DNA of 34,582 nt from a virus, in the UHGV virus genome UHGV-0129090. One strand, 5' to 3'. Under the pieces are notes generated by a model. The model saw only the letters and a list, made by a program, of their open reading frames with translations, was not told where the DNA came from and did not search any database. Below are positions 24,834 through 34,532 of this stretch, piece after piece (positions within the stretch are counted from its first letter, which is position 1; every line of letters begins with the position of its first letter). A program made the position numbers and the translations under genes.

Positions 24834-24886
24834 TATATTTTTCCTCGTTAGATTGAATAGCCCACTGTGAGTAGTGGGCTAGATTA

Positions 24887-25360: not shown

Positions 25361-25411
25361 TTACTTTCCTTATTAGATTAAAAAGCCCACTAATAAAAGT
25401 GGGCTATATTA

Positions 25412-26586: not shown

Positions 26587-26967
26587 TCACAGATTATCGT
26601 CTATATAATTAGTTGGTTTCGAGAACTCAAATTCTGTACCGTAATTATTTGAACGATCAACTATCTTAGTGGTGTTTTTGTGGGGGCCGTGGGCTTTATG
26701 TTCTTCGAAGCTATGAATATTTGTAAGTCGGTCGGCGGCAATAATACAGCTACCAGTAGATGGGCGTTCTTCACCCAATAGCATAGGCTGACAATCACTA
26801 CTGAATTGTGGGCGATACTCTTTACCACCATTTACGGGGAATAATACTAGTGTACGACCGTTAATATCACCTACTACGGCTTCATTCATAAAAGCAGGCG
26901 TTATAGTAGTACAGCCAGTAGTGATTGTAGCCGTAGCGAGTACAGCTAGGGCAAAGAGATGTTTCAT
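26587..26967 (-). CDS. Putative lipoprotein
   Basis: MKHLFALAVLATATITTGC: signal peptide ending in a lipobox-like TTGC. Confidence 0.5.
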   Translation of the reverse strand: MKHLFALAVLATATITTGCTTITPAFMNEAVVGDINGRTLVLFPVNGGKEYRPQFSSDCQPMLLGEERPSTGSCIIAADRLTNIHSFEEHKAHGPHKNTTKIVDRSNNYGTEFEFSKPTNYIDDNL

Positions 26968-27075
26968 TAGTAAATCCTTGTAGTGATTGTGTGGAGTGAT
27001 GCTTGATGTGAATTATTATAGCTATGATATTTAGTAATAGCTACTACTTTATTTGTGTAGTAGCTATTATTATTC

Positions 27076-28799: not shown

Positions 28800-28982
28800 A
28801 TGAATACAGTAACTTACTTAGAACGCGGTAACATCACTGATATCATGGTTAACGATGTATATATGGGGGCGGTAGTAAAAGGTGACGATAACAAATATCG
28901 TACCGTACATAAGAACAATGCAGAATCTGGTACGTTTACTGCTTTCCACTTCGCAGCGTACCATGTAGAAAAAGCAGTATGA
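28800..28982 (+). CDS. Hypothetical small protein (track ORF from alternative start at 28767; ATG at 28800 has a better ribosome-binding site)
   Basis: gaaggg about 8 nt upstream of ATG at 28800; one of only a few plus-strand genes; followed by terminator. Confidence 0.4.
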   Translation: MNTVTYLERGNITDIMVNDVYMGAVVKGDDNKYRTVHKNNAESGTFTAFHFAAYHVEKAV

Positions 28983-28993
28983 TAGAAACGATG

Positions 28994-29018
28994 AAGCCCA
29001 CATTAAGTGGGCTTTTTT
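28994..29018. terminator. Rho-independent terminator (bidirectional, between convergent genes)
   Basis: Stem aagcccac / gtgggctt with loop attaa, then tttttt. Confidence 0.65.
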
Positions 29019-29527
29019 GTCTTGTGTGGTTTCTTAGTCTTCGGTACTGGTACTGCTTCTTCCTCTGTAACGTCCTGTACGCCCCTTAGAATGCGTTCTA
29101 CTTCCTCGGCGTTGCGTTGTACGTCTGTATAGATTCCTTCTGCTACGTAGCGTTCTAGACCCTCTACGTTGGGGATTCCGTGGCTGGCGACCACACCATC
29201 CACATGATGAATATGTAGGTCCAGTCCACCATTGATACGGGCACGGAAGTTATACGGGTTATTATTCAGTATTTCGATTTGCATTATTTTTACTCCATTG
29301 ATTATACAGTCTGACATAAAGATTATTTCATCCAGATCATCCATGACTACGGACAACTGGAAGTATTCTGCCTCATTCAGTCCTAGATAGTAATCAGGGG
29401 GATGATCGTACTTGATAGTATTATTTAGTAGTATGCCTTTACGATTGACTGCATAACGTCTGGCTAACTTGTAGTCATTGAATATCAAGCCACGTGGGTT
29501 ATTGTATATTATTTTTAGTTTTCTCAT
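29003..29527 (-). CDS. Hypothetical protein
   Basis: 174-aa ORF; Lys/Pro/Thr-rich C-terminal tail. Confidence 0.4.
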   Translation of the reverse strand: MRKLKIIYNNPRGLIFNDYKLARRYAVNRKGILLNNTIKYDHPPDYYLGLNEAEYFQLSVVMDDLDEIIFMSDCIINGVKIMQIEILNNNPYNFRARINGGLDLHIHHVDGVVASHGIPNVEGLERYVAEGIYTDVQRNAEEVERILRGVQDVTEEEAVPVPKTKKPHKTKKPT

Positions 29528-29840
29528 TGGGTATCCATTGGTAAGTAATTTGTCCTTTGACGTGTTTTAGTATTTCTATCTGCACCTTCTGTACTAATTC
29601 TGCATCGTATAGAGTACATTCTTGAAAGAGCATTTCTTCCGTGTACTCCGTAAGTAGTTTTCGTGGTATTTCTTGCGTATATGTTCTTTCAGTCCACCTA
29701 TTGTTAATGTAGTCATACATGAAAGATAGTTCTCCACTTGCGAAGATGTATAGTCCTTGTGATGGGAAGTGATTCAGTACGGCATCATGATAGTTATGGG
29801 AGTATCCCCAATGCGTCTGTTTACTGCTTATGTATTTCAT
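29499..29840 (-). CDS. Hypothetical protein
   Basis: 113-aa ORF overlapping downstream gene. Confidence 0.4.
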   Translation of the reverse strand: MKYISSKQTHWGYSHNYHDAVLNHFPSQGLYIFASGELSFMYDYINNRWTERTYTQEIPRKLLTEYTEEMLFQECTLYDAELVQKVQIEILKHVKGQITYQWIPNEKTKNNIQ

Positions 29841-30149
29841 TTTTTCTTTTTCCTTATTGATAGTTAATTATTCGGTACTGTCGCCGCCCGTTCCACTCCG
29901 TCGCCGCGTCCAACTCACAAAATATATGAGGAAGCACTTTGATAGTAGTAATGAGAACTACACCTACTGGATCGAGCAAAGCGAAGGGAGAACGCTTGCG
30001 GGATTCCGTAGCGATAGCGAGGAAAACGCAATGTTAGGTGTAATAATTAAATAATTTCAAAGACTCGCTCTGTCGAGGCTTTCTAATTACTTAACTATTT
30101 CTTCCTGTTCTATTAAGACATACTAAAATGAAAAATTATATTATATTAA

Positions 30150-30320
30150 GGGGGGCTAATGCACCAATCGCCCATAAAATTTCAAATCCATTTCAGAAAA
30201 GCCTGTAATATCAAGGGTTTGCGGCCTATTTTGCGTGTGGGTTAATCCCATTAGCCCATACAAATCAATCCCAATAGCCCATAATTAGCATATATGTATG
30301 GGCTAATAGGGGCTAATGGT
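30150..30320. repeat. Cluster of short repeats (GGGCTAAT / ATTAGCCC and AATCCCAWTAGCCCATA) in a non-coding region
   Basis: GGGCTAAT at about 30153, 30300 and 30310; reverse-complement copies at about 30250 and 30274; 17-bp direct repeat at about 30244-30260 and 30267-30282. Confidence 0.5.
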
Positions 30321-30321
30321 A

Positions 30322-30804
30322 TCATAACAATCCCGATAGATATTTGATTAGATCATTAATCGGGATGTTAGAATCAATCTTCTGTACTAACACTTCTTTT
30401 TGTTTCTCGTCTAGTTGCTTTCCTGATACCTGGCTAACTACACGTTTCATTGAGTTTTTTAGCGGTATACCCTGAATGATTAGTAGTTCTAATGCCTCTG
30501 ATACTTTCTTACATACTGTTTTATACTTAGTTTCCTGTGAATCACCCTGCATCTGTGGTTTTCCATTATGTAGACTACGCATAGTATTGATCGTATGTAG
30601 TGTTAGTGATTTAGTGATGTAATCACATTTTCGTATAACTTCGAATATTTCCTCTGAATCTACTTTATTACGTCCTAAAGATTTACAATTTTGAATTGCA
30701 TTATTGATTGCCTGAGTAGCTTCTAATGATAGTTCTTTGAATTTTATTTTCTTTACTTCTTTGTACACAATACTGTTATTGTGTGGTTTTTCCATGTTAG
30801 CCAT
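30322..30804 (-). CDS. Hypothetical protein adjacent to repeat cluster
   Basis: 160-aa ORF. Confidence 0.4.
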   Translation of the reverse strand: MANMEKPHNNSIVYKEVKKIKFKELSLEATQAINNAIQNCKSLGRNKVDSEEIFEVIRKCDYITKSLTLHTINTMRSLHNGKPQMQGDSQETKYKTVCKKVSEALELLIIQGIPLKNSMKRVVSQVSGKQLDEKQKEVLVQKIDSNIPINDLIKYLSGLL

Positions 30805-30885
30805 GATGATAAATACTCCTATAAAATGTGTCTTGTTCCTTAATATGGCGTACTAGTGCTTCTCCTCACTAGTACGCCTTTTTTA

Positions 30886-31491
30886 TTATTTCTTGAATAG
30901 TGCCTGTACTTTGAATACTAAATCAGAAGGTACTTTTTGTAGTTCTTCTTGATAGGTTTTACCGCGAAGTAGTTCCATGTATACCTTACGACTAGTAGAA
31001 CGGTTGAATGTACTATTCAACGAGTAAGTTAGATCATCCAAAAGTACATTGCCATTAGTACCGAAGACGCTATACGCATGTAAGTAGATATCATGTATTA
31101 GTTCTACATCAAACTTATCTTGCATTGGTTTACGCTTACTAATACTGTATTTTACATTAGTGCTATGTGCCGTCCATTCGATGTTACTTACTTCGTTATT
31201 ATGCTTATCTTCATCAATATGATTGATAACTACATTTTTGTACTTCTTAGTAAGCCTTAAATATTCCTTACTATCAAATGTAGATCCCATCATGCGATGC
31301 ACTGCATGTTTATATGATTGATATTCATTATTAGTACGAAGATCAATCCATTTCTTTTTCTTTGAGTCGTATACTTCGGCATTCTTACTAATCCAGACAT
31401 CATCTACATAGTGTATAGTATTGTCGGTATTGTTATTGATCTTTGCTTTATATAAAGTAACTAGTACATTATTTTCATTTAGTTTTCTCAT
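30886..31491 (-). CDS. HNH endonuclease
   Basis: INHIDEDKHNNEVSNIEWTAHSTN matches the His...Asn...Asn-Leu/Ile-x-Trp core of HNH nucleases. Confidence 0.6.
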   Translation of the reverse strand: MRKLNENNVLVTLYKAKINNNTDNTIHYVDDVWISKNAEVYDSKKKKWIDLRTNNEYQSYKHAVHRMMGSTFDSKEYLRLTKKYKNVVINHIDEDKHNNEVSNIEWTAHSTNVKYSISKRKPMQDKFDVELIHDIYLHAYSVFGTNGNVLLDDLTYSLNSTFNRSTSRKVYMELLRGKTYQEELQKVPSDLVFKVQALFKK

Positions 31492-31561: not shown

Positions 31562-31714
31562 TTAGTTAGAAGAAAGTACCGCGTGTTTATTGATTAGATA
31601 CTGTATTGCAGCACTACGCGTTTTCGCTTTTCCTTCGGTAATTAGTTTATCAAGTACATCGGCTTGGGCTTCAGATACTCGCACACCAATACTAATTGAT
31701 TTGTTTTCTTTCAT
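31562..31714 (-). CDS. Ribbon-helix-helix (Arc/CopG-like) DNA-binding protein; short ORF absent from the supplied track
   Basis: My translation: MKENKSISIGVRVSEAQADVLDKLITEGKAKTRSAAIQYLINKHAVLSSN; strand-helix-helix pattern; aaggaag ribosome-binding site about 6 nt upstream of ATG. Confidence 0.55.
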   Translation of the reverse strand: MKENKSISIGVRVSEAQADVLDKLITEGKAKTRSAAIQYLINKHAVLSSN

Positions 31715-31765
31715 ATAGCTTCCTTTTTTGTTGAACAAATTGCTAAAAATTAAATCCGAAAATAT

Positions 31766-32205: not shown

Positions 32206-33804
32206 TCACTTCCTACTGTCAATCATTGTAGTAGCTAATGCCATTGCACCATCTACTACATTCTTCCAATACTCTAAAGCATCATCATCAAGATCACCAG
32301 ACAACGTACCATCTAGACTAAGACTACTAACAGATCTTAGAGTAGTAGTTAGTGTATTAGTACCACCAGTACCAGTACGCTGTATATCTACATCAATAAT
32401 CACTAGATGGCTTAGTGCATCAGACCAATACTTGATAGTACAGTATATGGTGTACTTAGACTTGCTTACATCTTCCCGTACTATGTTTATGTGCTGTATT
32501 AGCTTCTTAATGCGGTTGTTTAGTTCGATGCGATAGTTAGTATCTAAATCTAACTTATCATCATCAAAGGTTAGCTGTATATCCTTCGGTACGTCTACTG
32601 ATTTTAGGCGTATAGTCAATTCTTCCTGTTCGCGGTTCATGATCTCTAATTCATCCAGTATCGCAAACTTTTCATGCCTACTAGCTTTATTAAGACGTTC
32701 ACGGAACGCGGCAATATCCCTTTCGTTCTGAATCCACTGATCACGCAATGTTAGTACGTTATTATCTTCATGTTTATATACTTCACTGAAATCTAATCCA
32801 CGAATCGCCGTTAGTAATGGGCGTTCTAATGCGTTATATGCAATGCTACGGGCTTCACACGTTTTATTAGTACGTTTACCTAAGCAGACTGTAAAAAGAT
32901 TACCGTGGCTGTTACGCTTCACTATAATTGATTGATTGCATACTGGACACCGTGACATACCCGAAAATATATTGAGCATGTTTTTTTGGTGAGTATTACC
33001 CTTTTTGTTGGTGCTGGCTTTTAATGCCTGTACGCGGTCGTATAGGTCTTTATCAATTATTGGTGGATAACGTGCATCATCGGCAACTCGTTTATCACTA
33101 AGAGCACGTAATACGGTTACTAGTGTCCACGGCTTACCATTATCAGTATTGCCATAAGTACGGACAATCTGAGCCGCACCAATGCCATTAATATAATCAT
33201 TATACATACGCTGGATCGCCTTTGCTGTATCATTTGTACGGTACTGTTTCACGCCGTCTAGCTCTACTACATCAAACCATCGAGGCCGCACCTTTGATAC
33301 TTTTCCGTAGCGGTTGGCGTGTGACTTCTGCATCATTATACTTTTGCGTTTTGACTCCCCGTTAGCACGGTTTATTTGTATTGTAAGCACACTTAAACTT
33401 TCTGGAATATAACGCGAATACGTCATTCCTGTCTCAATCTCTAGGATAGTAGTACCACGGTTAATTAGACCGGATATGATTTCTACTGCCTGAAATGGAT
33501 CAAGACGTGTAAGGCGGTCGATGTTCTCTACGATTAGTACAGAATCATTGATCACACCGTCCATAACCATCTTTCGGTACTTGCCTAAGAGTGTTTTTTC
33601 ATTCCAGTTCTTCCCACGGAACGCCGATTTACCCTCTGCTACCATCTGCGTTATGTTCTCGGTATCGAGCGTAAAAGGTAGTCGATGGTCTAATACAACA
33701 TACTGTAAAAACTGATTGATTGTGTTTACCTGCCTTTGAATACCAAAGCCGTCAACCTGCTTGAGCGTTGAGATACGGGCATAACACCATACGGGCACTT
33801 TCAT
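32206..33804 (-). CDS. Large serine recombinase (phage integrase)
   Basis: N-terminal resolvase-type catalytic region YARISTLKQ and VENIDRLTR, followed by a large C-terminal domain with a Cys cluster (CPVCN...C...C); GGAGGT ribosome-binding site; start about 40 bp from attR. Confidence 0.85.
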   Translation of the reverse strand: MKVPVWCYARISTLKQVDGFGIQRQVNTINQFLQYVVLDHRLPFTLDTENITQMVAEGKSAFRGKNWNEKTLLGKYRKMVMDGVINDSVLIVENIDRLTRLDPFQAVEIISGLINRGTTILEIETGMTYSRYIPESLSVLTIQINRANGESKRKSIMMQKSHANRYGKVSKVRPRWFDVVELDGVKQYRTNDTAKAIQRMYNDYINGIGAAQIVRTYGNTDNGKPWTLVTVLRALSDKRVADDARYPPIIDKDLYDRVQALKASTNKKGNTHQKNMLNIFSGMSRCPVCNQSIIVKRNSHGNLFTVCLGKRTNKTCEARSIAYNALERPLLTAIRGLDFSEVYKHEDNNVLTLRDQWIQNERDIAAFRERLNKASRHEKFAILDELEIMNREQEELTIRLKSVDVPKDIQLTFDDDKLDLDTNYRIELNNRIKKLIQHINIVREDVSKSKYTIYCTIKYWSDALSHLVIIDVDIQRTGTGGTNTLTTTLRSVSSLSLDGTLSGDLDDDALEYWKNVVDGAMALATTMIDSRK

Positions 33805-33844
33805 CTACTTACCTCCATTCACTGTGGTGTACATCCTATCACAA

Positions 33845-33850
33845 CTGTTC
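33845..33850. repeat. attR core (ctgttc) at right prophage/host junction
   Basis: Same hexamer as 667-672; host frame resumes here; phage arm gtggtgtacat (33824-33834) mirrors atgtacgccac (687-697) across the core. Confidence 0.7.
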
Positions 33851-34532
33851 ATTGCTGCTGATGGGGCCGCAGTGGCGTTCGCGTCTCGATCGTGAAGCCA
33901 GCCTGCTGGGTCACAGTGGTTGCCGTATTGGCGGTAACGATCTGGATATCGCGCTGGCGTTTAAAAACCTGATGCCGTTACTGGGCATGGGTGGCGAAAC
34001 CGAAAAAGGCATCGCCCTGCCGATTCTGCCGTGGTGGAATGCGGTTGCCATCAACGACGTTCCTGCACAGAGTGATTTCTACAGTAGTGCCAACGGTCGT
34101 CTGCTTAACGATCTGGTACGCGATGCCCGCGAACCGGAAAAAGTGGCCCTGTTACAGAAAGTCTGGCGTCAGCGTTTAAGCTATCGCCTGGTGCGTAGCG
34201 CAGAAGAGAGCAAAATCGCCCTTTCAAGCACTGCGGAAACCCGCGCCTCACTGCCGTTTATCAGCGATGAACTGGCTACGCTGATTAGCCAGCAAGGGCT
34301 GGAAAGCGCCCTCAGCCAGCCACTGGCGCGGATTCTGGAACAGGTGCAACTGGCGCTGGATAACGCCCAGGAAAAACCGGACGTTATCTACCTGACCGGC
34401 GGTAGCGCCCGTTCGCCGCTGATTAAAAAAGCGCTGGCAGAACAGTTGCCGGGCATTCCGATTGCAGGCGGCGATGACTTTGGCTCCGTCACCGCCGGGC
34501 TGGCACGCTGGGCAGAAGTGGTATTTCGTTAA
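33845..34532 (+). CDS. yegD: Host YegD, 3' fragment continuing the interrupted gene (track ORF 33768-34532 includes a phage-derived 5' extension)
   Basis: GC-rich; begins CSLLLMGPQW exactly where the left fragment ends; ends LTGGSARSPLIKKALAEQLPGIPIAGGDDFGSVTAGLARWAEVVFR. Confidence 0.85.

Follow-up and report, generated by a model that had tools for sequence, protein, structure and literature searches.

The locus analyzed here raises the question of why a cluster of short repeated words lies in a non-coding gap among the early genes of an uncharacterised prophage, and which protein reads those words. The gap (29841-30321, 481 bp) is flanked by two minus-strand genes, gene X and a gene for a 113-aa protein, and agrees with the non-coding region of about 480 bp in which a first-pass annotation had described the cluster, proposing that it is either an origin with iterons or a control region with several operators.

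The window (the whole stretch of DNA that was analyzed, 34.6 kb) contains a low-GC prophage of ~33 kb (39 per cent GC) integrated in yegD of Enterobacteriaceae. Nearly all of its genes are carried on the minus strand, and at the right end of the window the C-terminal part of yegD adjoins the gene for a large serine recombinase (Table 1). Members of the lineage occur in Escherichia, Enterobacter, Klebsiella, Citrobacter, Kluyvera, and Pantoea, and are characterized by low GC content and a serine integrase. The related loci L008, L023, and L024 are also inserted in yegD, as is a 95.7 per cent identical copy in E. coli WGI31CT (NZ_CM135810), in which all genes around the array are annotated as 'hypothetical'; the Klebsiella relative L021 is found at a different site. 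A DNA search of phage and plasmid collections with the array region gave no match, and searches of the literature on a yegD prophage and on the protein accessions yielded nothing relevant.

About 20 early genes of the lineage lack a recognisable function, and no known repressor or replication gene is among them. In the window, the early genes (23.5-32 kb) do not match any known replication or repressor family; their sole matches are a weak ribbon-helix-helix (RHH) match and an HNH-like endonuclease. The first-pass annotation had found no replication module outside the gap, and our Pfam and PHROGs searches of most open reading frames (ORFs) of at least 80 aa and of the entire early region likewise recognised no replication gene. 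The slot between the RHH gene and X is occupied by different genes among the relatives (HNH/NUMOD4 types, an unrelated family of 163-172 aa, and a 96-aa remnant). Two near-consensus sigma-70 promoter matches are located on the minus strand upstream of the RHH-HNH-X genes and of a gene for a 60-aa membrane protein: TTGACA-17-TATAGT at 32222-32194, and TTGAGA-18-TATAAT with a TG at 31892-31863, the latter with an 8-bp palindrome (TACATGTA) directly downstream. The plus-strand ORF at 29830-30054, already suspected of being spurious, is not a gene: L006 and L023 carry 1-nt indels that disrupt its frame, and it is absent from the PGAP annotation of the E. coli copy.

Table 1. Features of the window that are referred to in the text, from left to right.
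Feature	Position	Strand	Remarks
yegD, N-terminal part (Hsp70-like)	2-676		at window end
GIY-YIG SegE-like (homing-endonuclease-like) gene	1909-2397		inside prophage
Lysozyme gene	2387-2839	+	one of two plus-strand exceptions
Structural and packaging genes	about 4.4-23.5 kb
60-aa gene	28800-28982	+	other plus-strand exception
113-aa gene	29499-29840	-	next gene downstream of gap
Conserved leader	29841-30034	-	outside swapped cassette; contains P1, TCGCTN boxes, and GC patch
Hairpin P1	30031-29996	-	CTTGCG...CGCAAG; U-run/A-run inner stem
Exchangeable cassette	30035-30805	-	gene X, operator array, -10 box, and long hairpin
Long hairpin	30042-30099	-	GC-rich top, AU-rich base; module variable between relatives
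Two overlapping TATAAT hexamers	30145-30140 and 30140-30135	-	candidate -10, read directly from sequence
Site 7, GGGCTAAT	30153-30160	+	C-run next, TATAAT 7 nt on
Site 6, GGGCGATT	30166-30173	-	occupies expected -35 position
Match (TATCAAGGGTTTG) to IHF consensus WATCAANNNNTTR	30209-30221	+	separates distal from proximal sites
Possible extra degenerate copy, GGGTTAAT	30239-30246	+	in relatives, a copy abuts site 5 here
Site 5, GGGCTAAT	30250-30257	-
Site 4, GGGCTATT	30273-30280	-
Site 3, degenerate, ATGCTAAT	30284-30291	-	exact or one-mismatch word here in most window-type relatives
Site 2, GGGCTAAT	30300-30307	+	dyad with sites 3 and 4 around ACATAT
Site 1, GGGCTAAT	30310-30317	+	inverted relative to gene direction; few bp past X stop codon
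Gene X (160-aa ORFan)	30322-30804	-	candidate sequence-specific DNA-binding protein
Hairpin followed by T6	30847-30884	+	upstream of X; pairing kept via compensatory changes in all relatives
HNH-like (homing-endonuclease-like) gene	30886-31491		inside prophage
RHH gene	31562-31738		weak match; 1.2 kb upstream of array; also annotated so in E. coli copy
Large serine recombinase gene	32206-33804
yegD, C-terminal part (Hsp70-like)	33768-34532		at window end

Exact copies of GGGCTAAT number four in the whole window and all lie within 30153-30317 (30153 and, in the distal part, 30300 and 30310 on the plus strand; 30250 on the minus strand), so that a motif scan across the 34.6 kb finds the exact word nowhere else. 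Together with three or four degenerate copies, they bring the total in 30153-30320 to seven or eight, bearing out the earlier count of at least five within ~170 bp. The 12-mer ATGGGCTAATGG, with up to two mismatches allowed, has eight matches in the window, five of which fall within 30164-30319, and none of 100 shuffled sequences gave eight matches. A Poisson estimate for at least five matches in 168 bp is about 5e-12 (our own calculation from the scan numbers); the clustering of the sites is far beyond chance. Both the 17-bp direct repeat (30244-30260 and 30267-30283, 94 per cent identity) and the inverted pair (19-nt arms, 89 per cent identity) that had been noticed at first were recovered. 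On sequence evidence, the repeat cluster is real and functional.

To place the cluster in an evolutionary context, we compared the window with 20 related loci, which were mostly retrieved by exact-protein look-ups (genome and metagenome scans contributed only four of them). The cluster begins 2 bp past the stop codon of X, and its layout is nearly base-for-base constant in the 20 relatives, with copies at offsets of 8, 18, 34, 45, and 68 past that stop codon. Read in gene direction, two inverted copies are followed by a conserved ACATAT centre and by two direct copies spaced by one helical turn; some 12 bp beyond these there are one or two extra copies, then 60-80 bp with a match to the consensus of integration host factor (IHF), and finally a head-to-head pair, the last copy of which is followed by a C-run and TTAATATAAT. 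The window type has two adjacent direct copies, one or two more, and three inverted ones. The arrays of L023 and L025 consist of two inverted pairs only, and that of L027 of two sites only.

Within any one locus the copies change in concert, and the word differs between lineages. Specifically, the word is GGCTAAT in the window, L006, and L001; a mix of TGCTAAT and GGCTAAT in L011, L015, L016, and L019; TGGTTAT in L007, L008, and L017; GGGTAAT in L009; CATCTTTCC in L023 and L025; AACCGTA in L021 and L026; and GGTGCCG in L027. When the words are tabulated by locus, nearly all counts fall on the diagonal (at most two per locus lie off it), and no word is enriched elsewhere in the loci. Such concerted change of all copies is expected for sites fitting one protein. 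The word follows the allele of X: where X is 64-74 per cent identical to that of the window, the word differs at one or two positions; X proteins of the pairs P0077/P0054 and P0056/P0066, each 64-66 per cent identical, share their words; and X alleles with only 21-30 per cent identity are accompanied by unrelated words.

This co-variation is partly confounded by physical linkage of X and its sites, which is broken only by the swaps seen in L023, L027, and L019. L023 is 93.5 per cent identical to the window over 34582-30806, as far as the X start codon, and 96.1 per cent identical over 30034-25377, and nothing aligns between these segments; the replaced segment (30035-30805) encodes an X protein of about 22 per cent identity, accompanied by the word CATCTTTCCA. 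This swap rules out the integrase, the RHH protein, the HNH-like gene, and the genes downstream as the source of word specificity. In L027, a window-type X gene is cut after about 25 codons and is followed by a gene for a 183-aa protein with its own word; the ends of this gene resemble those of X-family proteins, as judged by eye. This locus (E. coli NZ_CM151386, 1900-2570, minus strand; GGTGCCG/CGGCACC) bears a visible scar of cassette replacement. The third recombinant, L019, has X and sites of the L015 type and L008-type sequence right after the -10 box, which places the end of the linked unit at the promoter. Based on these three recombinants, only X, its sites, and the -10 box are inherited as one unit. 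In L018 (one metagenome contig), about 20 tandem copies of TTATTCTTTTA occur directly after the -10 region of the cassette (about 3190-3400), which could be a genuine expansion or an assembly artefact.

Two other candidate binders were considered and rejected. L007 and L011 encode near-identical RHH proteins, with the RHH beta-strand in common, and have different words, and L023 has the RHH region of the window and an unrelated word. The HNH-like slot gene varies among loci that share a word, and it can be the same where the words differ; L007 and L011, with their different words, have near-identical copies.

The X protein itself gives few clues from its sequence. Its homologues were found only in Enterobacteriaceae prophages, and a tblastn search of phage and plasmid collections gave no match. 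No HTH family, no CI-type cleavage domain, and no DNA-binding domain of any known repressor family were recognised in it, a search of its profile against PDB sequences gave nothing meaningful, and no similarity to known initiators or Rep families was found. An AF2 model built from 16 close homologues was discarded (pLDDT 45); with distant alleles added, the model reached a pLDDT of 86 and a pTM of 0.70 and is all-helical, with eight helices. A Foldseek search of the PDB with this model returned no significant match, and the best of the weak ones were to SANT/Myb/homeodomain-type DNA-binding modules. In a viral structure library, its only significant matches are uncharacterised proteins of two lytic jumbo phages, Klebsiella phage RaK2 (H6X3N2) and Pseudomonas phage 98PfluR60PP; the fold is therefore distributed more widely than the prophage lineage and is not tied to lysogeny.

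If X reads the words, where on the DNA would it act? In each of five cassette groups, a TATAAT hexamer follows the end of one word at a distance of 1-7 nt: ATTAGCCC-CCCTTAA-TATAAT in the window, CATCTTTCCA-ACCTAT-TATAAT in L023, CATCTTTCCGAC-TTAA-TATAAT in L025, ATAACCGTA-ACTTAA-TATAAT in L021, GCCGTAAC-TTAA-TATAAT in L026, and CGGCACC-T-TATAAT in L027. The core CTTAATATAATA recurs across unrelated cassettes. We regard the TATAAT at 30135-30145 as the candidate -10 element of a putative promoter that would lead into the early genes. No -35 match was detected in any cassette, which is why a consensus promoter scan did not list this site. In L023 and L025 an inverted pair of words brackets the hexamer, at about -28 to -19 and +10 to +19, an arrangement that fits occlusion of RNA polymerase. 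A promoter-like site on the plus strand also overlaps the -10 region (TTTCCA-17-TATAAT in L023), but its conservation across alleles is not clear.

The interpretation that we favour, and consider somewhat probable, is that the repeats are an allele-specific operator array for X at an early promoter of this prophage lineage. Two marks of an operator module are present: clustered copies of the word overlap the promoter, itself predicted from sequence only, and regulator and operators co-vary and are swapped together (L023, L027, and the nearly diagonal table). We infer from these patterns that X binds the sites, that the TATAAT promoter is active, and that the control has a given sign and serves lysogenic immunity; X would most likely be a repressor and the module of an immunity type. 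Under the proposed mechanism, the distal set of about five sites (30239-30317: two inverted copies, the two direct copies completing the dyad, and one or two further copies) and the proximal pair (30153-30173) would have different roles. The proximal pair would cover the -35 and spacer region of the promoter, which would read the minus strand through the conserved leader into the early genes, and bound X would most likely shut this promoter. The distal set may help through cooperative binding or looping, probably assisted by bending of the DNA by IHF at 30209-30221; it could also stop transcription of the X operon from reading through. X and its sites would then form one specificity module that, like immunity modules, moves between prophages that are otherwise nearly identical. 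Repression is favoured because a protein at about -41 to -20, and at +10 to +19 in two alleles, normally excludes RNA polymerase. Against the immunity reading, X is co-directional with the genes that it supposedly represses and no strong terminator lies between them, an uncommon arrangement in immunity regions. A search for a LexA box (CTGT-N8-ACAG) gave none, and no induction route is suggested.

A promoter that lacks a -35 element could instead need an activator. On this alternative, which we consider unlikely, X would bind at the missing -35 and recruit RNA polymerase to a -10-only promoter, and the cassette would be a delayed-early switch instead of an immunity determinant. The promoter architecture speaks in its favour, as all five cassette types combine a good TATAAT with an X word in place of a -35 match; X also lies in an operon with near-consensus promoters upstream (31892-31863 and 32222-32194), and X-like folds are present in lytic jumbo phages. 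However, the proximal word, 1-7 nt from the -10, lies over the spacer and extended -10 zone, and L023 and L025 have a second copy at about +10 to +19, both being positions from which a bound protein normally excludes polymerase. Moreover, activation offers no obvious function for the large distal array.

Returning to the operator array, the IHF-consensus match lies between its distal and proximal sets. The consensus has five matches in the window versus 2.6 expected, and a single match is therefore weak; it is the positional conservation that gives it weight. The match is kept in position in 9 of 10 window-type relatives and in L021 (with one mismatch in L011 and inverted in L009) and is absent in L023 and L025. 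With both consensus and conserved position, 30209-30221 is a predicted IHF site. A resemblance of the overlapping CTTGATATTA (30208-30217) to the nick core of phiX174/pC194, which would indicate rolling-circle replication, was rejected: roughly half of the relatives lack CTTGATA, whereas the IHF consensus is preserved in both of its halves, and no HUH Rep was found.

Origins commonly contain IHF sites, and the origin proposal of the first-pass annotation has other observations on its side. Here the words would be iterons, X a new initiator, and the AT-rich DNA at 30050-30150 (26 per cent GC) the unwinding element, with X and ori swapped as a replicon-specificity module in the manner of lambda O/ori or SaPI rep/ori. 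None of the ORFs tested is recognisable as a replication gene, the sites lie directly 3' of the co-varying gene X, and the early region holds no better iteron cluster. Yet the region lacks a DnaA box (TTWTNCACA), the sole match in the window being at 12242; the AT-rich stretch has no counterpart in the L023 and L025 cassettes, which have two inverted pairs and not tandem direct iterons, and L027 has two sites. X is unlike known initiators, no conserved helicase-loader gene follows it, and in every cassette type a site is fixed against TATAAT, which an origin would not need. We therefore hold an origin to be improbable. The multi-operator half of the original proposal is upheld by the co-variation of word and X and by the TATAAT contact; the origin half gained no positive support.

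A cis role apart from promoter control, such as a centromere-like or roadblock array, or sites for the RHH protein, would accord with the binding of RHH proteins such as omega and ParR to arrays of direct or inverted short words at about 10-bp spacing, which this array resembles, and with the weakly matched RHH gene 1.2 kb upstream, but it is very unlikely, as RHH does not co-vary with the word (L007 versus L011; L023), the element is chromosomally integrated and has no partition ATPase, and the fixed TATAAT contact is left unexplained.

Downstream of the cassette, the leader has features of its own. The GC-rich patch that had been noted next to the repeats (29870-29910) is real, with 68 per cent GC versus 39 per cent for the window, a level reached by only 0.2 per cent of 41-nt windows; it is not part of the repeat module, however, and sits in the leader outside the cassette. 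It contains a direct repeat of GTCGCCGC (at 29880 and 29900). The TCGCTN boxes of the leader are pyrimidine-rich, and hairpin P1 shows some compensatory changes in its upper part and is directly followed by a U-tract in L007 and L019. The idea that the entire leader folds as one structured RNA was rejected, given fold z-scores of -1.3 for the minus and 0.0 for the plus strand; only local hairpins look real. At the gathering score, Rfam 15 has no match in the window, and a permissive search of 29700-30450 gave only chance-level hits (E >1); no tRNA or tmRNA was found in the window. The leader is kept even in relatives in which cargo genes on the opposite strand come next, and could be an attenuator or a Rho-loading region. 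In L001, L009, L011-L014, L019, and L021, unrelated cargo directly follows the leader, much of it on the opposite strand (for example, DUF3800 and 245-aa ORFans), which suggests that the region after the leader is an insertion hot spot for accessory genes.

Other hairpins and repeats were observed as well. The long hairpin inside the cassette includes G-U pairs that are workable on minus-sense RNA only. The hairpin with T6 upstream of X would terminate transcription running antisense through X, and no plus-strand gene accounts for the presence of this terminator-like element. Three terminator-like intergenic hairpins (24858-24881, 25384-25405, and 28994-29014) have a common stem, AGCCCAC/GTGGGCT. 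The likeness of this stem to the operator word (TAGCCCAT) was examined as a possible link between words and terminators and rejected: relatives with other words have unrelated stems, so the likeness looks coincidental. Lastly, at 26791-26990 and 27032-27072, GTAGTGATTGT occurs three times (once inverted) around the start of a gene for a lipoprotein-like 126-aa protein and adjoins a hairpin with a 16-bp stem. Its count in the window (3 versus 1.1 expected) is not significant, as 10 of 100 shuffles reach 3, and its clustering within 200 bp is the only notable feature.

How does the putative operator module compare with known systems? In lambdoid phages, immunity modules (cI / OR-OL / cro) are exchanged between heteroimmune phages. 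As in the X cassette, several operators overlap a promoter, there are many specificity alleles, and operators and regulator are swapped together between otherwise similar phages. Unlike CI, X is not of the HTH_3/S24 type, and no Cro partner or LexA/RecA route was identified. X is also co-directional with the genes that it would control, its sites lie 3' of its gene and not between divergent genes, and its words are 8-10 bp long and in mixed orientation, in contrast to the 17-bp dyads of lambdoid phages. The early operator region of Mu and D108 (O1-O2-O3, O1 and O2 being separated by an IHF site) is similar to the X array in that many short repressor words in both orientations occupy about 170 bp, with an IHF site among them, and related phages carry different words. 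Mu differs in having divergent Pe/Pc promoters and a repressor (Rep) to which X has no sequence or fold relation, and the IHF site of the X array is predicted from the consensus and not present in every cassette.

Iteron origins next to an initiator gene (lambda O/ori, P4 alpha with its 8-bp type I iterons, and SaPI rep-ori) also combine repeated words with a neighboring, co-evolving gene for the binding protein in allele-specific pairs and, as in the window, have AT-rich DNA beside the sites. They are set apart from X cassettes, which have no DnaA boxes or conserved unwinding region, in some cases consist only of inverted pairs, and hold one site in a fixed position at a -10 hexamer; X itself lacks initiator, helicase, and primase domains. 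T4 MotA and Mu Mor/C are activators of phage promoters without a -35 element. Like the candidate X promoter, these promoters have a good -10, no -35, and a site for a phage protein instead, whereas the X word lies closer to the -10, and in two alleles there is a second copy downstream of the start.

On the favoured reading, the X cassette is, in kind, a phage regulatory or immunity module, and its protein family and head-to-tail layout are new. A more far-reaching possibility, to which we assign a low probability, is that X founds a new family of sequence-specific DNA-binding proteins and works in a one-directional switch, in which the X gene, the operator array, and the -35-less promoter are arranged head to tail, or that it is also an origin-binding protein. 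In such a switch, the conserved antisense terminator upstream of X would suggest that a counter-transcript through X locks an 'X-off' state. If X also bound the origin, immunity and replicon specificity would be one module. X has a confidently modeled but unmatched fold, which makes its family a candidate new DNA-binding module. For the prophage lineage, the cassette is a first handle on its control logic, as it points to a candidate regulator with precisely mapped sites and comprises at least five natural alleles that differ in specificity, and the swaps in near-isogenic backgrounds make binding, immunity, and reporter tests easy to design.
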